A program made the position numbers and the translations under genes. This document shows, piece by piece, positions 17,379 to 27,303 of a DNA stretch of 31,698 nucleotides. Below the pieces are notes generated by a model. It saw nothing but the letters and a program-made list of their open reading frames with translations, searched no databases and was not told where the DNA came from. Source of the stretch: a virus (Duplodnaviria; Heunggongvirae; Uroviricota; Caudoviricetes); the IMG/VR virus record IMGVR_UViG_2565956729_000013, positions 1 to 31,698 of that record. One strand, 5' to 3'. The stretch's first letter is position 1. The number at the start of each line of letters is the position of its first letter.

Positions 17379-19166
17379 ATGGCGTACTCTGATGAAGTGA
17401 TTGCTGCAGCAAAATCACTCTATCTGAAAAGGCACACCCCAAAAGAAATACAAAAGAAGCTCGGACTGAACAGCCCGCGAATTGTTTATTACTGGGCGAC
17501 AAAGTTTGAGTGGTACACACAGCTTAATACTGAGGGCGTGGAGGATGTCATCGCCCGGCGTCTCGCTGTACTGGCGGAGCGTGACCATAAAACCCAGGAA
17601 GAGCACGATGAACTCGATCGCCTGATTGGCCACCACGTCAAACTGATGTCGGTCAGGAACAAGCACACAGAACGAATGGCCGAGATAGAACGAATGGGGG
17701 CTGATATTCCCCGGTCTGGCCGTTATGCAAAAGAAGAGCGCGGAGAAAAAGACGCGGATAAGAAAGAGCGTCGTCGTAAAGCTAATGATGTGTCAGGGCT
17801 GACAGCAGAGAGTTTTGAGCCGTTTACCAAAAAACTGTTCGCTTATCAGTTGCACCTGCGTGAAAACAAATTCCGTCGTGTACGCAACCTGCTTAAATCG
17901 CGCCAGATTGGGGCGACATATTACTTCGCGTTTGAGGCATTTGAAGGTGCGGTATTAACCGGCGACACACAGATATTTTTATCGGCATCAAAACGTCAGG
18001 CCGAAGTGTTCCGCACCTATATCGTTAAGATTGCACAGACGGAATTTGGCATTCCCATTAAAGGCAACCCGGTTAAGTTAAGTAATCTGGCTGAACTGTA
18101 TTTTCTGGCGACCAACAGTAACACGGCGCAGTCAAACAGCGGCCACCTGTACATTGACGAATATCTGTGGATCCCCGGCTTTCGTCGCCTCAATGAAGTG
18201 GCGTCCGGTATGGCCACCCACTCGCACTGGCGCATTACCTACTTCTCCACGCCGTCAACCAAAACCCATCAGGGCTATCCGTTCTGGTCCGGCGATGAAT
18301 GGCGCAAAGGCGATCCGAAACGAAAAGGGGTTGAGTTTCCGTCCTTTAATGAACTGCGCGATGGCGGGCGTGAATGCCCGGATGGCCAGTGGCGCTATGT
18401 GGTTACGCTGGAAGATGCCATTGCCGGCGGCTTTAACCTTGCTGACATCAACGAGCTGCGCGAGCGGTACAACGAAACAGCGTTCAATATGCTGTTTATG
18501 TGTGTGTTTGTGGATGACAAAGAGAGCGTCTTTAAATTCGATGACCTCGTGCGCTGTGGCGTTGATGTCAGTACGTGGGAGGATTTTCACCCGGAAGATG
18601 CCATGCCATTTGGTAACCGTGAGGTGTGGGGTGGCTTTGACCCTGCGCGCTCCGGCGATAACGCCACGTTTGTGGTGCTGGCACCGCCGCTGGTTGCGGC
18701 AGAACGATTCCGCGTGCTGGAAAAACACCACTGGCGCAGTATGTCATTCCAGTTTATGGCAGAGCGTATCCGCAGCATTAAGGCGCGCTATAACATGACA
18801 TTTATCGGCATTGACGTCACCGGTCTTGGCTACGGTGTCTTTGAGCTGGTTCAGGGATTTGCCCGCCGTGAAACAGTGGCCATTCATTACAGCGTGGAAT
18901 CCAAAAACCGCCTGGTGATGAAGATGCTGGATCTGATTTACGCCAACCGTATTGAGTGGGATGAAGAAGCCACAGATATTCCGGCATCATTTCTGGCTAT
19001 CCGTCAGGAATCCACTAACAGTGGCAATAAAGTCACTTTTACCGCCGAACGTAGCGAAGAAACCGGGCACGCTGACATCTTCTTTGCCATAGCTCATGCC
19101 GCAAGTAATGAACCCCTGAACTATAAGCACAAGCGCAAATCAACATGGATCCTGTCAGATGAGTAA
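17379..19166 (+). CDS. terminase large (ATPase) subunit (P2 P-like)
   Basis: 595 aa, size and N-terminus typical of P2 gpP; followed by overlapping portal gene. Confidence 0.9.
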   Translation: MAYSDEVIAAAKSLYLKRHTPKEIQKKLGLNSPRIVYYWATKFEWYTQLNTEGVEDVIARRLAVLAERDHKTQEEHDELDRLIGHHVKLMSVRNKHTERMAEIERMGADIPRSGRYAKEERGEKDADKKERRRKANDVSGLTAESFEPFTKKLFAYQLHLRENKFRRVRNLLKSRQIGATYYFAFEAFEGAVLTGDTQIFLSASKRQAEVFRTYIVKIAQTEFGIPIKGNPVKLSNLAELYFLATNSNTAQSNSGHLYIDEYLWIPGFRRLNEVASGMATHSHWRITYFSTPSTKTHQGYPFWSGDEWRKGDPKRKGVEFPSFNELRDGGRECPDGQWRYVVTLEDAIAGGFNLADINELRERYNETAFNMLFMCVFVDDKESVFKFDDLVRCGVDVSTWEDFHPEDAMPFGNREVWGGFDPARSGDNATFVVLAPPLVAAERFRVLEKHHWRSMSFQFMAERIRSIKARYNMTFIGIDVTGLGYGVFELVQGFARRETVAIHYSVESKNRLVMKMLDLIYANRIEWDEEATDIPASFLAIRQESTNSGNKVTFTAERSEETGHADIFFAIAHAASNEPLNYKHKRKSTWILSDE

Positions 19167-20193
19167 AAAGAAAAAATACCCCGTGCTACACGATGGCGTG
19201 GCAAAAAAAACAGCCAGCAAAATGGCGTTTATTGAATTTGGTGACCCGGAACCAGTCGCTGCATGGGGCTGTTATTACGGCTCGCTCTGGGATGGCTATA
19301 ACGGCTGGTACACGCCGCCCATTGAGCGCATGGATCTCGCCATGTTGTCCAATATCGCACCGTATCACGGCGCGGTATTGCGTGCGCGCGTCAATATGAT
19401 CATGCAGGGTTTTCGGGGCGGTGGGGGTATGACACACGCAGCCATGGCGGCAGCGGTGACCAATCTGCTGATATTCGGGGATATGGGGCTGCTTAAAGTG
19501 CGTAACGGCTTCGGGCGGGTGGTGCGCCTGCATACGTTGCCGTCGCTGTACCTGCGGCGCAACAATGAGGGTGGCACGGTGATTGTGCAGGCGGCACTGG
19601 AAGATCTCGTTTATCCGCCAGGTGAAGTGGTGTTTGTGGCCATTTATGACCCGCAACAGCAGGTTTACGGTGTCCCGGATTATATCCACGGGATGGAATC
19701 AGCCATGCTGAATGTGGATGCCACTCGCTTTCGCCGCAAGTATTACAAGAACGGCGCACATCTTGGTTATATCCTGTATTCCACTGACCCGGACATGGAT
19801 CCCGAGCTCGAGGCGGAATTTCGTAAAAAGATAGAGGCGTCAAAAGGGGCGGGCAATTTTAAATCCATGTTTATCAATATACCAGGTGGAGACAAAGAAG
19901 GCGTTAAGGTGATCCCTATCGGGGATTCAGGCACAAAAGATGAATTCCTGAATATAAAAACCATCAGTGCCCAGGATCAGCTCGTGGCGCACCGTTTTCC
20001 ACCCGGACTTGCCGGCATCATTCCCGCAAATACGGCCGGGTTGGGTGATCCGCTGAAATCCCGTGAGGCCTATTACCGGGATGAGGTTATTCCGATGCGT
20101 CGCCTGATTATGGAGGGGATCAACAGCGACCCGGATATCCGGAGACTGGGGCAGGTGGAATTTATTCTTGAATTTAATGAAGCCACGGAGTGA
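19159..20193 (+). CDS. portal protein (P2 Q-like)
   Basis: 344 aa, same length as P2 gpQ; ATG overlaps the last codons of the terminase gene. Confidence 0.9.
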   Translation: MSKKKKYPVLHDGVAKKTASKMAFIEFGDPEPVAAWGCYYGSLWDGYNGWYTPPIERMDLAMLSNIAPYHGAVLRARVNMIMQGFRGGGGMTHAAMAAAVTNLLIFGDMGLLKVRNGFGRVVRLHTLPSLYLRRNNEGGTVIVQAALEDLVYPPGEVVFVAIYDPQQQVYGVPDYIHGMESAMLNVDATRFRRKYYKNGAHLGYILYSTDPDMDPELEAEFRKKIEASKGAGNFKSMFINIPGGDKEGVKVIPIGDSGTKDEFLNIKTISAQDQLVAHRFPPGLAGIIPANTAGLGDPLKSREAYYRDEVIPMRRLIMEGINSDPDIRRLGQVEFILEFNEATE

Positions 20194-20258
20194 TGTGCGA
20201 CATGGAGAAGGAGCGGGTAAAATCAGCAGCAGTAAAACGTTGTTCCGGGAGGTGGAAA

Positions 20259-20516
20259 ATGCGCAGACAGAAAGCGCGGTGTCATTGCTGTGGTGCTCGT
20301 GCAGTGATTGAGAAAACAGCCTGGAAAACCGATCGGTTTGCTGATGTGTATTACCGTTGCACGCGTCTTGAGTGTGGGCATACCTGGGTGATGAACCTGA
20401 CCTACTCGCACACACTGGTGCCCAGTGGACTGGAGAATGGCGTGTTAAAGCTGTTGATTGAACGGATGCGCCCGGAAGAAAAACAAATGGCTCTGGAGTT
20501 ATTGCAGGTCGGATAG
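20259..20516 (+). CDS. ogr: Ogr/Delta-family zinc-finger late transcription activator
   Basis: ATG at 20259 preceded by GGGAGGTGG RBS; 85 aa with CxxC...CxxxxC pattern (CHCCGARA ... RCTRLECGH). Confidence 0.7.
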   Translation: MRRQKARCHCCGARAVIEKTAWKTDRFADVYYRCTRLECGHTWVMNLTYSHTLVPSGLENGVLKLLIERMRPEEKQMALELLQVG

Positions 20517-20536
20517 CTGACGCGCTTCGCTTGTCC

Positions 20537-20591
20537 AACCCGGAACGGGCGCACAAAGAATTTGCGCACCCGTTCCGGGTTTTCTTATTTA
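20537..20591 (+). terminator. rho-independent terminator after ogr
   Basis: Near-perfect 16-18 bp GC-rich stem (AACCCGGAACGGGCGCAC / GCGCACCCGTTCCGGGTT) followed by TTTTCTTATTT. Confidence 0.7.
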
Positions 20592-20944
20592 ATGGCAGAC
20601 AACTGATAATTTGTGTCTTCCTGCAGGCTGGTTAAAGAAATATTATCCAGTGCAGCCAGAATAACGTGCTGTGTATATAATCCGGAACATTTCATTGCCC
20701 GGACAATATCACCAACACTGTAATTTTCTTTTGTCGGGATATATCCACCACCCGGGCCGCGTGTGGCTTTTACCAGGCTACTTTCCCGTAAATATCTGAA
20801 TATTTGCTCCAGATATGACAGTGACACGGTTTCTTTGCTTAATTGCCGGAGCGAGATTGGCTTTCCGGTGTACTGTTTCACAAATTTAATCATTACCATA
20901 ACTGCAACTGATGCACGCTGGCTTCCGGAATTATCTTTCATCAT
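20585..20944 (-). CDS. Rrf2-family transcriptional regulator
   Basis: Signature ISLSYLEQIFRYLRESSLVKATRGPGGGY; ~119 aa from the MMKDNSG start; lacks the IscR-type Cys cluster; AT-rich DNA. Confidence 0.8.
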   Translation of the reverse strand: MMKDNSGSQRASVAVMVMIKFVKQYTGKPISLRQLSKETVSLSYLEQIFRYLRESSLVKATRGPGGGYIPTKENYSVGDIVRAMKCSGLYTQHVILAALDNISLTSLQEDTNYQLSAIK

Positions 20945-20955
20945 GATTACTTCCA

Positions 20956-21243
20956 TTAATGGCATAAATTGATGGAGCGGGTCAGTGAATAAAGAGGCAA
21001 TACATTCCATCCCTTAGAGCGCCAGCTGTCTGCAACATCTTTACTTCTTGTTATCGCCGGTATTCCAATAGGATTATTTGCGTGCATCCATGCCACTGGC
21101 TCTGCTTCCAGTGATGCAAGTGCGATTTCCAGTGCGATTAACATATTGTGATCGTCTTCATCAAGACCGAACGGGATGTCTTCGCGCCACGATTTAAACT
21201 CTGTGATTTTACGTTGTAACCATTCTTTGGTAATGGTGGACAT
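20956..21243 (-). CDS. hypothetical protein (95 aa)
   Basis: ATG at 21243 (MSTITKEWLQ...) with AGGAG RBS; track start at 21261 is GTG; AT-rich accessory region. Confidence 0.5.
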   Translation of the reverse strand: MSTITKEWLQRKITEFKSWREDIPFGLDEDDHNMLIALEIALASLEAEPVAWMHANNPIGIPAITRSKDVADSWRSKGWNVLPLYSLTRSINLCH

Positions 21244-21257
21244 AGTTACTCCTGTTT

Positions 21258-21572
21258 TCACTTCGGGAAAAACGCCTGAATATTCTTTTTCACCTGCTGC
21301 ATATGGGGGGCGTTGTCTGCTGCTGGTTGCGCCGGTTTTTCAGGCTGTACTGGTAGCGGTGGCATCCGTATTTCGTCTTCTGACCATTCTGCCAGCGAAT
21401 ACGCCAACGCGGGGGTGCGTTTTATAAGAGCCAGTCCGGCCAGAAAAGCCGCGCGTTGTGCGCGGCTGCGTTCGGAGGCTGGCAGGCTGTCGAGGTAACT
21501 GCACGCCTCCCGTTCGCTCTTGACGACGGCGGGCTTCAGATAGAAACTTATTCGTCTGGTTGGTGTCGTCAT
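21258..21572 (-). CDS. parR: ParR-like centromere-binding protein
   Basis: 104 aa; DSLPASERSRAQRAAFLAGLAL resembles recalled R1 ParR DSIPQGERSRLNRAALTAGLAL; AAGGAG RBS; directly downstream of parM. Confidence 0.7.
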   Translation of the reverse strand: MTTPTRRISFYLKPAVVKSEREACSYLDSLPASERSRAQRAAFLAGLALIKRTPALAYSLAEWSEDEIRMPPLPVQPEKPAQPAADNAPHMQQVKKNIQAFFPK

Positions 21573-21576
21573 TGAT

Positions 21577-22536
21577 TTACTCCTTGTCCATTGCGTACAG
21601 CCCATTAACCAGAGCAAACTGTGGCACCCCGTCCGCGATGAAAGTCGCATTAACTCCGCAGGCTTCGCGGATAGCGGGTGCCACAATCTTCGCTCCTCCA
21701 CCTACAACCATCACCCGCCCGTAACCCGAAAAACCCGCCAGCGCGCGGATCACGCGTTGTTTCAGTGTTTCCTCCTTTTCACGAATAACTGCCATCAGGC
21801 TGGCGTAATGTGCGTTATTGTGGATGTGCTGGCGCAGCCAGGCTTCATCGTGGCGATGTTCGATAATGGTATTAGCGATGTGGTGACTGGTACGCATACC
21901 GTTGGTGGCCATCACCGACAGCACGGCATCGGCCATCAGAGAAACGCCTACGTGTGGATCGCAAAACACCTGGCTGATACCTGCCAGTTGCCCCTGAACC
22001 TTTGCCACATCCAGCGTGGTTCCGCCCAAATCCACAATCAGCAGGGATTCAAACGGACTCATGTCAGCCAGCGCTTTAAAGCCAGCCGGAATGGATTCAG
22101 GCATAACCCGCACGTTACGGATAGTGAATGCCTCACCGTTCTGGTACTCCACCGGGCGCATAACGTTCGCTTTTTTGCGGTTGATGTTGGCCATGTCCGG
22201 CTGTGCGTTTGTGTCGAAATACTCGCTCAGTGGCAGGGTGACAACCACATCCACCTCCTGAGGCGTGATGCCTGATTTGACCAGCGCGTGATGAATGGCA
22301 ATGACATTCACATCGCTGTACTGGTATTGCGTGTCGGTCGTCTGGACAAAGCGATCGCTGACCGGATCAAAACCATAGCGCACGCCATCAAGCATGTAGT
22401 TCGCGGGCTGCGTGCCACCGAACGGCGCAGACCATTCCGACTTGAAGCTGTTCGGGCTGATGGCGTTGCGGCGTTCGCCGTTCTCAGTCCATGCCAGTTT
22501 GATGTTGGTGGAGCCGTCGTCGATACAAATTTTCAT
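21577..22536 (-). CDS. parM: ParM/StbA actin-like segregation ATPase
   Basis: 319 aa; motifs IDDGSTNIKLAW, YSDVNVIAIHHAL, VMPESIPAGF, LIVDLGGTTLD, GYGRVMVVGGGA match recalled plasmid R1 ParM along its full length. Confidence 0.85.
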   Translation of the reverse strand: MKICIDDGSTNIKLAWTENGERRNAISPNSFKSEWSAPFGGTQPANYMLDGVRYGFDPVSDRFVQTTDTQYQYSDVNVIAIHHALVKSGITPQEVDVVVTLPLSEYFDTNAQPDMANINRKKANVMRPVEYQNGEAFTIRNVRVMPESIPAGFKALADMSPFESLLIVDLGGTTLDVAKVQGQLAGISQVFCDPHVGVSLMADAVLSVMATNGMRTSHHIANTIIEHRHDEAWLRQHIHNNAHYASLMAVIREKEETLKQRVIRALAGFSGYGRVMVVGGGAKIVAPAIREACGVNATFIADGVPQFALVNGLYAMDKE

Positions 22537-22564
22537 GTCGATTTTCCTTATGTTGATTAATTAA

Positions 22565-22679
22565 TCGTTTACGGGATTCTGAAATCCCGTTCTTGCCTGT
22601 TTTGTACGCGCCTCATATTTCGCCGCGTGTTTTTTGCTCATTTACGGGATTTGTGAATCCCGTTTTTGTCTGTTTTTTG
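22565..22679. repeat. parC-like centromere/promoter repeats upstream of parM
   Basis: Two ~40-bp direct repeats (22565..22604 and 22638..22679), each with a dyad ACGGGATT-N4-AATCCCGT (22570..22589; 22643..22662), then a T-rich CTGTTTTGT segment. Confidence 0.55.
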
Positions 22680-25435
22680 TTTCCACTGGTTAGTCCACCC
22701 CGCAGCAGCTCTGCTTTGCGGCGGACGCGTTCAGTGGTTTCACTGATTCTCTGTGCGTGCTCTGCGTCACGGATGGCACGCAGCATGTCAGAAAGCACGG
22801 TAACGGGTGTTTTCATGGTGTTCTGGTCCTGCTGAAGTGTGGATGCCAGGCGTGCGGCGGCTTCGGGGTCTGATGCCCTCAGCTGTGCCAGATAGCTGGC
22901 GACCGGGTTATGACGGATCTCCGTGCTGCTTACGCCGTGATTACGGCTCAGGCGCTGCCAGAGCTGCGTGATTCGGCTGTCCGGGCGGGTATCCGGTTTG
23001 CGTACAATTTCAAATCCCTGCGGTGCAATGATGCTGCCGTCAACGTACAGACTGCCGCCCCGTAACAGGTGCTGCATCTGCTGTTCACCGATATGCAGGC
23101 CAAGGGATTCAGCAGACTCCCGCCATTCTTTAGCGAGTAATTCGTGGTTATCAGGCAAAGGCCGCTGCTGTTTGCGGCTCTGTGTCCAGCTCTGCATTTC
23201 ATCACTGCTGTTTTTTGCCTGTTTGTCACGCAGCGAACGCATCAGCGCCCGGCGTTCGTGCCGTTTCAGTGAGCGCATCCATTCATTCACGTCAACGCTG
23301 TCAGGAAGCTGCGGCCACGGTGCTGGCCGTTCTTCCGGCTGTTCTGTCCCGTTGTTGTCCGTTTCCTGTACACGGGGACAGTTATTGCCACGAGTCCAAG
23401 GGGCGGCAGGGCCGCCCTGAAGGTCAAAACCATTTTCGTGGGCGTTGTCTTCCGGTTCTGGTTTACGTCTTACCAGCTTCCAGTTATCCGGATGCGTGCA
23501 CACACGGGAGGATTCCCCGATGAGTGGTGACCAGATCCCGTAAATCTGTACGCTCTGTTCGCCGTAATCATTCAGCTCATCTGCGAGGTCGTAGGCGGTG
23601 CGAATCAGGTAGTCTTTGCGTGGAACAAGTACGCCGCCCTGTTTCTCAATGTAGGTGGCAAAACACCCGGCATCAGCGGCAGCGAGTACCGCATCCATTG
23701 CATCATCCTTCAGCCGTTGTGGGCCTTCCGGGTTGCGTGCCATCTGGCTGGCAAGGCGGCGCAGTTCACGCCACACCTGACGGGAGGGGATGCCAAAGAA
23801 CTGGAACTGGCGGACCCGGTGAAGGCGCGCCCAGCCGATGGCGCGTTCCACACTCTCGGCCATTGATTTTCCGGTTTCGTGGTCAACGCGTGGCTTGCCC
23901 GTTTTCGGGTCGATGCCATCCACGGCGCGGCTGTCCAGGTTCTTTCCGATGTAGGTGGCGATGTAGCTGGTTGGCGTGCCTTTTGAGCCGTCGACGTACT
24001 CCGCCTTAAAACGCGGAGTTATGTCATCGCCCAGCTCGTGGCGGTCTTCCTGAATGGCAATATCGCAGACGTGGGACACGATGGTTTCAATCTCGTCAGG
24101 ATGAGCAAAAACCATCATGTGCCAGTGCACCGTGCCGTCATGATGAGGCTCCACCGTGCGGATGCCATACCAGCGCAGGCCGTCGCGGTTCAGTTTTTTG
24201 CGGACCGCCGCAAAAAACGTGTTAACCAGGTAATCGCTGGAGTCGCGCATAGTGGCCCCGTTCCATTTGGGATTCGGATGACCGTTCTCCGTTGTTGCGT
24301 GGTATTTTGACGGGCAGGTGACAGTCAGAAACACCGCTCTGTCGCCACGGGCTTCGGCCAGAAGTTCCAGCCCCTTCATGGTGGCCATCATTTCTGCCTT
24401 ACGGTGAACCGGGTTACTTACTCCCGCGTAATACACTGTATCGAGATCAATCGTGAACCCGTCTTCGTTTTCCAGCATGAAACTTTTCAGGAAATCGCGT
24501 GTTTTCTCGCGCTGTGCGCGAAACTCGCTTAACGCGTTCTGGCTCAGATAGGGTGATGTTTTTCTGGAAACCAGACAGGCGGCGCGGAGTTGTTCTTCTC
24601 TCCACTCGCAACGTAACAGCCACAGTTTGCGTTTCCACCAGTCCGCACAGGTCAGGCGAAGGATTGCGCCCGGCAGCAGCTCCGTGTCTGGTTCGTTCTT
24701 CCGGTCTTTGTCTGTTGTCAGTGCGTCATAATACGGCGGCACGGTGTGCAGATGTAACGCCATGCGGGCCAGCATCTGATACACCTTCAGCGTTATATCC
24801 ATAGTCAGCTCGCCATCGGTCGCGCCAAAGCCATCGCAGAGCTTTTCGAAGGTGCTGCTGAACATCGCCGCCGTCATGGTGGCCAGCGTCTGTATCTGGT
24901 GCTTGTTGAGCTGTGGCAGGTACAGCAAATCGTCCAGGCGTTCACGTCCGGCAAGGGAGCGATAACCCGGAGTCAGCCAGTGACGGTCGGTGCAGTCCAG
25001 ACGTTCGAATATTTTGCGCAGGGTTCCGTGCGCGTAACGTTCAGCCTGCCAGTTCTTTTTTCCTTTCCGGCGATCGGCTTCCTGTTTTTTGCGCAGGAAG
25101 GAGAGGTGGCGAATAAGCGGATCGCGCAGATAGGACGGCAGCAGGCGCAGCGAGGCCATGGCTTCATCCACCGCGCCGCGTGCCTGTCTTCTGGCGTCTC
25201 CTGCCAGCGTGATGGTTTTGTCCTGTTTTTCCTGTGCGTCCAGGCTTTTATTAATCAGGTTGCCCAGCGGCGTGGCGGAGAACGCCGCATCAGCCATTTC
25301 CTGGCGGCGCTCGTTCTCTGCCCGGTAGGCATCCAGCCAGGAGGAAAGCGCGGATTCAGGAGCGGGGATCCCCGTTCCTTCACGCCCCACTGCGTGGCGC
25401 GGTTGTTGCCAGTCCCTGATGTACTCTGCCGTCAT
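22613..25435 (-). CDS. replication initiation endonuclease (P2 A-like rolling-circle initiator)
   Basis: 940 aa; metal-binding motif HWHMMVF typical of the family; 3' end overlaps the second parC-like repeat. Confidence 0.8.
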   Translation of the reverse strand: MTAEYIRDWQQPRHAVGREGTGIPAPESALSSWLDAYRAENERRQEMADAAFSATPLGNLINKSLDAQEKQDKTITLAGDARRQARGAVDEAMASLRLLPSYLRDPLIRHLSFLRKKQEADRRKGKKNWQAERYAHGTLRKIFERLDCTDRHWLTPGYRSLAGRERLDDLLYLPQLNKHQIQTLATMTAAMFSSTFEKLCDGFGATDGELTMDITLKVYQMLARMALHLHTVPPYYDALTTDKDRKNEPDTELLPGAILRLTCADWWKRKLWLLRCEWREEQLRAACLVSRKTSPYLSQNALSEFRAQREKTRDFLKSFMLENEDGFTIDLDTVYYAGVSNPVHRKAEMMATMKGLELLAEARGDRAVFLTVTCPSKYHATTENGHPNPKWNGATMRDSSDYLVNTFFAAVRKKLNRDGLRWYGIRTVEPHHDGTVHWHMMVFAHPDEIETIVSHVCDIAIQEDRHELGDDITPRFKAEYVDGSKGTPTSYIATYIGKNLDSRAVDGIDPKTGKPRVDHETGKSMAESVERAIGWARLHRVRQFQFFGIPSRQVWRELRRLASQMARNPEGPQRLKDDAMDAVLAAADAGCFATYIEKQGGVLVPRKDYLIRTAYDLADELNDYGEQSVQIYGIWSPLIGESSRVCTHPDNWKLVRRKPEPEDNAHENGFDLQGGPAAPWTRGNNCPRVQETDNNGTEQPEERPAPWPQLPDSVDVNEWMRSLKRHERRALMRSLRDKQAKNSSDEMQSWTQSRKQQRPLPDNHELLAKEWRESAESLGLHIGEQQMQHLLRGGSLYVDGSIIAPQGFEIVRKPDTRPDSRITQLWQRLSRNHGVSSTEIRHNPVASYLAQLRASDPEAAARLASTLQQDQNTMKTPVTVLSDMLRAIRDAEHAQRISETTERVRRKAELLRGGLTSGNKKQTKTGFTNPVNEQKTRGEI

Positions 25436-26478: not shown

Positions 26479-27303
26479 TTACTTCACCGGAACAAACGGA
26501 ACAGCGGTGTTGCTGGTCATGTATTGCGGCAGCGTGCCGTTCCATTTGTTGATTGCTTCCAGCTCCATAACGCCGGGATTCTGGCGCAGAGCTTCACCGC
26601 GTAAACGAATGGCGTCGGCTTCAGCCTGGGCTTTTGTGCGAATGGCATCAGCCTGTCCGGCAGCTTCTGCGCGCAACATGTTGGCTTCTGCTTCACGTTG
26701 CTTGACTTCCTGTTCGCGTTGCAGGGTTTTCTGGTTTGCCGTGACTTTGGCATTAATGCTGTCGATAACGGTTGACGGGTACTCCGGCTTACCCACATAT
26801 GAGAGGCTCATTACCTGAATACCGATGGGTGTCATTTCCTCCTGAATGTCTTTAAGAGCTGCATCCAGTAGTTCAGATTTCCCTCCGTCGATAAATTTGT
26901 CGGTGGTCATTTTGCTGGCCAGTCGGTTGAGTGCATCGGCGATCTTCTGGCGCAGGTCAGTGTCGGTAATGTCATCCACGCCTTTGCGGTAGGTCTGAAA
27001 CACTGTAGTAACTTTGGATGGATCAACCTTGTAGGCCACACCGATGTGATAGCCGATGGTTGTGCCGTCACTCATCTGGAAGCTGAACGGCTCATCGTAG
27101 GCCTTCATTTGTTTGAAGGTCGGGAAGATGTAAACCTCGGTATTCCAGCCAGTCCAGTAGCGGCCAACGCCAACCACTTCGCCGACGCCTTTGTCGTCGC
27201 CCAGTTTGTTGACTTTGATGCCCACATTACCTGGCTCAACGCGATCGCAACCAACCAGGAAGATGGCGGCAAAAAGCGGGATAACCGGAAAGAGTTTTTT
27301 CAT
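26479..27303 (-). CDS. SPFH/band-7 (stomatin/prohibitin-like) lipoprotein
   Basis: 274 aa; signal peptide with lipobox LVGC; SPFH-like core then Ala/Glu/Arg-rich coiled-coil tail; start overlaps upstream stop (ATGA). Confidence 0.8.
   Translation of the reverse strand: MKKLFPVIPLFAAIFLVGCDRVEPGNVGIKVNKLGDDKGVGEVVGVGRYWTGWNTEVYIFPTFKQMKAYDEPFSFQMSDGTTIGYHIGVAYKVDPSKVTTVFQTYRKGVDDITDTDLRQKIADALNRLASKMTTDKFIDGGKSELLDAALKDIQEEMTPIGIQVMSLSYVGKPEYPSTVIDSINAKVTANQKTLQREQEVKQREAEANMLRAEAAGQADAIRTKAQAEADAIRLRGEALRQNPGVMELEAINKWNGTLPQYMTSNTAVPFVPVK

Follow-up and report, generated by a model that had tools for sequence, protein, structure and literature searches.

The low-copy plasmid R1 carries a type II partition system, parMRC (the parA/stbAB locus), in which a centromere with its promoter is followed by parM and then parR; R1 parC consists of ten 11-bp iterons flanking the promoter. 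Here we describe a locus of the same family in an integrating phage. It lies in a stretch of 31,698 nucleotides (virus record IMGVR_UViG_2565956729_000013, the whole of which we call the window) that is a P2-like prophage of Escherichia coli, of the P88 type (Xuanwuvirus, Peduoviridae). The window carries a real ParM and ParR pair of the R1 family, that is, a plasmid-style actin-like type II module, and we lean, with a probability of roughly 0.55, towards a functional segregation module that acts on transient circular phage DNA after infection or excision. Two things set it apart from R1 parMRC: its host is an integrating phage instead of a low-copy plasmid, and upstream of parM it has two palindromic boxes, 73 bp apart.

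Other actin-like systems are instructive for comparison. The srpMRC system of the SXT/R391 integrative and conjugative elements (ICEs) has four 13-bp repeats that are bound in pairs, and it stabilises the excised form of the element, which replicates by rolling circle (Carraro et al. 2015; PMC4489591). A type II system on a normally chromosomal element, it is the best functional analogue of the module in the window. However, SrpM and SrpR are only distantly related to R1 ParM and ParR, SrpR has no homology to ParR, and the element is an ICE, whereas ParM and ParR of the window are clear members of the R1 family and sit on a phage. In the Corynebacterium glutamicum prophage CGP3, the AlpAC/alpS system is expressed soon after induction, and phage DNA replicates efficiently only with it (Donovan et al. 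2015; PMC4446434). Here too, a prophage encodes an actin-like protein together with a DNA-binding adaptor, which binds upstream of its own operon, but AlpC, from another actin-like family, has no sequence relation to the R1 family, and CGP3 is a large, cryptic prophage of a Gram-positive host. Finally, the P1-like plasmid prophage D6 has an R1-family ParM (48% identical to that of the window) with a ParR, and the note on the partition protein in its GenBank record reads 'similar to phage P88 StbA protein'. Unlike the element studied here, D6 lives as an obligate plasmid prophage of 91 kb, its centromere upstream of parM comprises many iterons, and its ParM falls outside both clades formed by the ParMs of P2-like phages.

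The closest system of all is the module of P88 and its Xuanwuvirus relatives, annotated as 'StbA' and partition protein. It is the same module, with a ParM that is 98-99% identical, in the same position and behind the same upstream boxes; P88 differs in its parR allele (57% identical beyond residue ~16) and in its downstream cargo. RefSeq names the two proteins 'plasmid segregation protein ParM' and 'plasmid partitioning/stability family protein'. Pfeifer et al. (Nucleic Acids Research, NAR, 2021; PMC7969092) listed P88 among putative phage-plasmids owing to its partition genes and suggested that it has episomal and integrative states, and the paper on P88 itself presents the phage as a mitomycin-inducible prophage in the chromosome and says nothing of partition (PMC5285337). 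Our searches of the literature on P2-like ParM, P88 partition, Xuanwuvirus and D6 returned annotation-level mentions and the comment of Pfeifer et al. only. The module and its phage-plasmid interpretation are already public, at the level of annotation and hypothesis. What the present analysis adds is the deep synteny of the module, an estimate of selection, a conserved two-box architecture as opposed to the iteron arrays of plasmids, and a breakpoint inside parR.

The ParM and ParR proteins

The parM gene (21577-22536, minus strand) encodes an actin-like segregation ATPase of 319 aa. The original prediction, made from the DNA letters and their translations, held that this protein can be aligned with R1 ParM over its full length, and so it can: among all PDB chain sequences the best match is R1 ParM itself (1mwk, residues 2-316, E 6.6e-92), at a global identity of 46%. 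The Pfam families StbA_N (1.8e-82) and ParM-C (3.9e-68) match far over their gathering cut-offs, and PHROG 691, 'partition protein', matches at 3.7e-90. Aligned with R1 ParM, the motifs DDGSTNIK, MPESIPAG, DLGGTTLD and GGGA show no difference, and the motifs for nucleotide binding and hydrolysis (phosphate 1, the catalytic Glu region, phosphate 2 and adenosine) are intact. In fact, parM is under strong purifying selection, with a ratio of nonsynonymous to synonymous substitution rates (dN/dS) of 0.01-0.11 against six close relatives, and clusters of the full-length 319-aa protein have 1308 and 4287 members.

A ParR-like gene had also been predicted to follow parM, and both its coordinates and the layout were correct, with the genes on the minus strand. 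The ATG of parR (21258-21572, minus strand) lies at 21572, 4 nt past the parM stop, and the gene encodes a predicted ribbon-helix-helix centromere-binding adaptor of 104 aa. It belongs to the same Pfam family as R1 ParR, Plasmid_stab_B (4.3e-24), so that the family search proposed with the original prediction gave strong matches for both proteins; PHROG 2515, 'partition protein', matches ParR at 3e-44, and the match to the structure of pB171 ParR (2jd3) is weak (E 0.009). ParR begins with a beta-strand, RRISFYL, and ends with the tail KKNIQAFFPK. The C-terminal motif [KRQ]-N-x-x-x-[LFM]-F-P is common to all the ParRs that we compared, from phages, plasmids and ICEs, and the C-terminal tail of R1 ParR reportedly binds ParM (Salje & Löwe 2008; Gayathri et al. 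2012). As far as sequence can tell, the proteins and their interaction motifs look like those of a working ParMR pair.

Two palindromic boxes upstream of parM

Upstream of parM lies gene A (22613-25435, minus strand), which encodes a P2-type rolling-circle replication endonuclease of 940 aa (Pfam Phage_GPA, 2.5e-127) and ends at 22613, 76 bp upstream of parM and on the same strand. The original prediction placed centromere-like repeats in this region, in the order parC-parM-parR. Repeats are indeed present in that order, but they amount to two copies of 39 nt and not to an R1-type array. The two copies are 82% identical, lie 73 bp apart and are the only notable repeat upstream of parM, and each holds a 20-nt palindrome, ACGGGATTnnnnAATCCCGT (CGGG-N10-CCCG). 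The distal copy, candidate parC box 1 (22638-22676, minus strand; palindrome ACGGGATTCACAAATCCCGT at 22644-22663), is found within the last ~21 codons of gene A. The proximal copy, candidate parC box 2 and operator (22565-22603, minus strand; palindrome ACGGGATTTCAGAATCCCGT at 22571-22590), is found in the 76-bp intergenic spacer between A and parM. In the 31.7-kb window we count exactly two occurrences of the core CGGGATT-N4-AATCCCG where 0.14 would be expected, and two matches were seen in 0 of 100 shuffles. Repeat and tandem-repeat finders detected no tandem iteron array anywhere in the window, so to speak of parC here is to speak of two boxes, where an R1-type parC would have ~8-10 or more short tandem iterons around the promoter.

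The boxes are conserved. Within 260 bp upstream of parM, exactly two GGG-N10-CCC boxes are present in the E. coli, Plesiomonas and Hafnia lineages, at -125/-52, -131/-59 and -128/-55 from the parM ATG respectively. Their spacing is kept at 73, 72 and 73 bp, in the midst of DNA that can no longer be aligned. In Hafnia, the boxes stay beside parM even though the gene upstream is a 167-aa open reading frame (ORF) and not A. The boxes thus belong to the par module and not to gene A or its origin, and we rejected the idea that they are part of a gene A origin on these grounds. We also rejected RNA hairpins or terminators in favour of a DNA-binding site: hairpin folding is stable for the E. coli boxes (z -3.3 and -4.0) and not significant for their orthologues in Plesiomonas and Hafnia (z -0.3 to -1.8), so that the conserved feature is the pair of GGG/CCC half-sites. 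As for the distal box, the terminator scan flags it on the plus strand only, antisense to all local genes. Conserved GGG/CCC half-sites one helical turn apart suggest a dimeric DNA-binding protein rather than an RNA structure, and the two boxes are the only plausible target of ParR, which we infer would bind them.

The sites of other homologues are built differently. In the second phage clade (Serratia and Enterobacter), a long inverted repeat with 19-nt arms and a spacer of ~28-31 nt stands in place of the boxes, and the homologues of plasmids, ICEs and D6 have classical arrays of (T/A)ATCTC-type iterons upstream of parM. The beta-strand of ParR varies as well. RRISFYL or RRVSFYL occurs only in the lineages with two GGG-N10-CCC boxes (E. 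coli, Plesiomonas, Hafnia), whereas elsewhere the strand reads RKISFYL (Enterobacter), RKI[MN]FYL (ICE and integrated-plasmid proteins) or KKVMIYL (D6), and that of R1 ParR is RTIAFKL. In ribbon-helix-helix proteins alternate residues of the strand contact bases; in ParR of the window these would be the Arg, Ser and Tyr of the strand, consistent with a changed specificity.

One further feature of this junction concerns gene A. Its product is 940 aa long here and 785-907 aa in the Plesiomonas, Hafnia, Enterobacter and Serratia relatives, and the C-terminal extension of A and the par site overlap.

Candidate expression signals lie in the same short spacer. A candidate weak sigma-70 promoter for parMR (22556-22583, minus strand), read by eye, would consist of a -35 element TTCAGA (22583-22578), a 16-nt spacer and a -10 element ATTAAT (22561-22556), followed by an AGGA ribosome-binding site at 22548-22545, with a predicted start of transcription near 22549. 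The candidate -35 lies in the loop of the proximal palindrome. A consensus promoter scan did not call a parM promoter, the candidate scoring 8/12, under the threshold; what points to it is the ATTAATCAA motif upstream of parM, which is kept in the E. coli, Plesiomonas and Hafnia lineages. No terminator-like site was called on the minus strand in the spacer between A and parM (22537-22612), and read-through from the early operon into parM is therefore plausible.

Conservation and distribution of the module

The window has the hallmarks of a P2-type phage: Phage_integrase, Phage_Cox, Phage_GPA, Phage_cap_P2, Phage_GPO, Terminase_6N/6C, Phage_portal, Ogr_Delta and a repressor-like helix-turn-helix protein. 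Its organisation is that of Xuanwuvirus and other P2-like phages, with int, a C-type repressor, cox and A, with portal and terminase divergent from scaffold, capsid and small terminase, and with an Ogr/Delta activator; the RefSeq annotation of a 98% identical prophage, which adjoins pdxB in an E. coli chromosome, agrees with this gene set. Identity to P88 (NC_026014, classified as Xuanwuvirus P88) is 96.3% for gene A and 94.7% for the segment from parR through parM to the 3' end of A, and the DNA from parR through gene A is 93-95% identical in P88 and 13 further records of the same group. As predicted, the module lies between gene A and the portal gene (19159-20193) of an integrase-bearing P2-like prophage.

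It had been supposed that this location makes the module cargo of an accessory hotspot. The comparisons speak otherwise. parM is present in 14/14 phage records that carry this type of gene A, and a search of 50,697 phage records found ParM homologues in D6 and the 14 P88-like records only. Of 5426 complete E. coli genomes, 1302 (~24%) have parM, at 90-99% identity; at a coverage of at least 80%, the gene A segment is found in 1322 genomes and parM in 1279, figures that are counts and not a per-genome linkage test. A single-protein scan of genome contigs returned three near-identical loci, and the more distant relatives came from a protein search combined with contig look-ups. They comprise ParMs at 54-62% identity in Plesiomonas, Hafnia, Serratia and Enterobacter, where a Phage_GPA gene is followed by parM, a Plasmid_stab_B gene, variable genes, and then ogr and/or the portal gene, with one or two extra ORFs between A and parM in Hafnia and Enterobacter. 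At 49-50% identity, the ParMs of Dickeya and Mangrovibacter lie in an ICE and an integrated plasmid. The order A, parM, parR is thus kept across genera, and the module is a conserved backbone of P88-like P2-type phages, not hotspot cargo.

By neighbour-joining, the phage-borne ParMs fall into two clades, one of E. coli, Hafnia and Plesiomonas and one of Serratia and Enterobacter, each with 100% bootstrap support, and their union has a support of 58% only. Both stand apart from the ParMs of R1, D6, plasmids and ICEs. Among the plasmids of PLSDB we found no ParM at 60-95% identity, the best plasmid ParMs reaching 53%.

The variable region starts further down, within parR. In 60-nt windows compared with P88, identity falls ~60 nt into parR from 95-98% to 50-68% and stays low downstream, to ~20585; this places a mosaic breakpoint at 21500-21520 (minus strand), just past the codons of the DNA-binding strand, and BLAST matches to phage records end at window positions 21375-21430. 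The hotspot therefore begins inside parR and not at the A-parM junction. Two ParR alleles, that of the window and that of P88, are 57% identical, and both occur with a near-identical ParM; they share the first 16 residues and a C-terminal N-I-x-A-[FL]-F-P tail.

ParR could have become mainly a transcription factor at two operators, with a ParM that no longer moves DNA, or the pair could simply hitch-hike with gene A as a regulatory or selfish remnant. There are only two binding boxes, the proximal one lies over the putative -35, and the module is tightly linked to gene A, whose coding end the distal box overlaps. Yet the ATPase motifs of ParM are all intact under strong purifying selection, the C-terminal tail motif of ParR is kept even across recombinant alleles, and the pair has stayed together across lineages down to 54% identity, all of which makes a remnant very improbable.

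The original prediction further took the partition system to imply that the element may persist as a phage-plasmid, that is, as a stable low-copy circular plasmid prophage besides its integrated state, with ParMRC as its partition system. The classification of P88 by Pfeifer et al. (PMC7969092) favours this possibility, as do the use of a 48% identical ParM by D6, a true plasmid prophage, a Plesiomonas relative on a phage-sized 32-kb contig, and NZ_CP148288.1, a circular 34,461-bp 'plasmid' that amounts to an entire P2-like phage, int, A and parMR included. But NZ_CP148288.1 is the only phage-sized replicon with a ParM of this clade among 72,556 plasmid records, the other matches at 95% identity or more lying in records of 0.2-1.4 Mb, and a 99.9% identical twin of it is integrated in another strain of the same study. 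NZ_CP148288.1 may represent an actual episome, or else the replicative form of the phage after excision. Over all complete E. coli genomes, parM occupies 1442 places, of which 1440 are chromosomal and 2 in plasmids. With few exceptions, the relatives are not autonomous extrachromosomal prophages, and the window carries no host flanks that would show its own state.

The genes of the window tell against a plasmid lifestyle as well. Integrase, Cox and repressor are all intact, and D6 and plasmids have a multi-iteron parC, unlike this module. The only replication protein identified in the window is the P2-type rolling-circle A, a Rep/iteron origin having been sought through repeat scans only, and P2 replication depends on gene A in a repressible early operon. 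Because the distribution is chromosomal, the circular record has an integrated twin, and integrase, Cox and repressor are present, we consider a stable plasmid prophage unlikely, and the single circular phage-sized record leaves the predicted phage-plasmid lifestyle with weak support. A locus universal among strictly chromosomal relatives, with the repeats absent, had been named as one outcome that would refute the prediction: nearly all relatives are in fact chromosomal, yet they do have the repeats, in conserved form. The other possibility raised with the prediction was that the actin-like filaments may serve another purpose.

Some of the records met in these searches deserve a remark of their own. 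NZ_CP148288.1 shares the int-cox-A-parM-parR early region, and its tail module is of the classical P2 type (sheath, tube, gpE, V/W/J/I), unlike the DUF2586/DUF2590-type tail module of the window, so that one early and par block is combined with two different structural modules. A 226-kb contig labelled Vagococcus sp. WN89Y (NZ_JBQPOM010000071.1) carries a P88-type parM (97% protein identity) with the same upstream boxes; on a contig ascribed to a Gram-positive Vagococcus, this is most likely contamination or assembly mislabelling. In Escherichia phage 503458 (NC_049341.1), parM is split over frames into four tblastn pieces, and the portal gene and gene A are annotated as fragments, which suggests sequencing errors rather than biology. 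Finally, the linear 26.8-kb 'plasmid' NZ_CP049283.1 of Shigella boydii is a fragment of a P2-like prophage, degraded and broken up by IS1 copies, with an unannotated parM remnant of 70% identity over 197 residues.

Possible roles, neighbouring genes and significance

How might such a module work in an integrating phage? We propose that ParR, as a ribbon-helix-helix protein, would bind both CGGG-N10-CCCG boxes upstream of parM. As 73 bp corresponds to about seven helical turns, the two boxes would lie on the same face of the DNA, and because the proximal box overlaps the -35 of the weak parM promoter, ParR would repress its own operon. The C-terminal tail of ParR would then capture the ends of ATP-driven ParM filaments, and these filaments would push box-carrying circles apart. 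With its place behind gene A, on the same strand and with no terminator called, the module would probably be made together with the early replication genes, so that its target would be the extrachromosomal circular phage genomes that exist after infection or excision. These would be spread through the cell and into both daughters, and circles would not be lost before integration or packaging, all of this with no permanent plasmid prophage being maintained. We favour action on transient circles because the closest functional precedents, srpMRC and AlpAC, sit in integrated elements.

Several points weigh against this proposal. It is not obvious why a cell that is bound to lyse should need segregation, and a circle that is repressed and does not replicate cannot be shared out between two daughters, so the selective benefit of the module is not self-evident. 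The two boxes are far fewer than the ~ten iterons of the R1 type, and a filament-capturing ParR complex built on two boxes is a candidate only. Furthermore, the parM promoter is sub-threshold in the scan, and the timing of expression is deduced from gene order alone. In the literature that we searched, we found no experimental study of the P88-type ParM/ParR module.

The benefit could also lie within the lytic cycle itself, as in AlpAC. ParM filaments would then position or spread replicating circles, for example by clearing them from the nucleoid or bringing them to where replication and packaging take place, and thereby raise replication efficiency and burst size, with no inheritance by daughters involved. 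The position of the module directly behind gene A, in the early orientation and with no terminator called, fits such a role; so does the fact that the elements are almost always integrated, which means that any action must fall in the induced or infecting phase. CGP3 provides the precedent, AlpAC being an early-induced prophage actin with its adaptor that is needed for efficient replication (PMC4446434). However, many P2-like phages lack the module, which is thus no general requirement of this mode of replication. We see a lytic role as the main alternative, though a rather doubtful one; it overlaps with segregation of transient circles and differs only in the benefit that is selected.

Downstream of parR, the window continues with a 95-aa ORF, a short Rrf2-like winged-helix protein, an Ogr/Delta zinc-finger gene and the portal gene. 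The cargo between parR and ogr (20585-21243) holds the first two of these: the 95-aa ORF belongs to PHROG families without known function, and the 119-aa Rrf2-like protein stays below NCBIfam cut-offs. In relatives, the same spot is occupied by HicAB (Serratia), a KAP NTPase (Enterobacter), an M78 peptidase-HTH (helix-turn-helix) pair or a DUF3800 protein, and by others in P88. The Ogr/Delta-type gene (20190-20580) comes directly after the portal gene and is convergent with the Rrf2-like gene, and a terminator-like hairpin (20568-20580) separates the two; on the P2 map, ogr lies at the other end, beside D and att. In the early region, between cox and A, a 274-aa protein with an SPFH/Band-7 domain (E 4e-30, window 26479-27303) is unusual cargo for a P2-like early operon. 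An Rfam search of 20000-23000 gave chance-level matches only (E above 0.5).

With neighbours in relatives such as HicAB and the KAP NTPase, and at a position that corresponds to the exclusion genes tin and old on the P2 map, the module could conceivably be directed at the host or at competitors, acting on the prophage-bearing chromosome or, like tin and old, against plasmids and phages through incompatibility or exclusion. But neither ParM nor ParR, nor either of the two downstream cargo proteins, matches any PADLOC defence-system model, and the module is conserved while the true downstream cargo turns over. Moreover, plasmid ParRs have a different DNA-contacting strand from ParR of the window, and plasmid iterons do not resemble the boxes, so that cross-binding is unlikely. 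We give such a function hardly any credence.

Beyond the module itself, we can tentatively envision a lineage of small temperate coliphages that has retained an actin-like machine of plasmid origin among its core genes, together with a centromere cut down to two boxes. This machine would be a cytoskeleton for handling phage DNA, needed either to make lytic replication efficient or to secure lysogeny by way of a brief episomal stage with active segregation. If true, ParM would be shown for the first time to have such a role in an integrating phage of E. coli, and a functional type II centromere would be reducible to two palindromes seven helical turns apart. Should the two boxes act as a working centromere, they would also help to define what the complex by which ParR captures ParM filaments minimally needs. 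P88 and PhiSM, which are inducible and form plaques, make a tractable test case for the question of whether integrating phages segregate their transient circle, as the SXT/R391 ICEs do, or use the filament for replication, as CGP3 does. For classifiers there is a warning here: partition genes alone make P88-like prophages resemble phage-plasmids, and their distribution is almost entirely chromosomal. Whichever the role, ~24% of complete E. coli genomes carry a chromosomal ParM/ParR pair that is under strong purifying selection.

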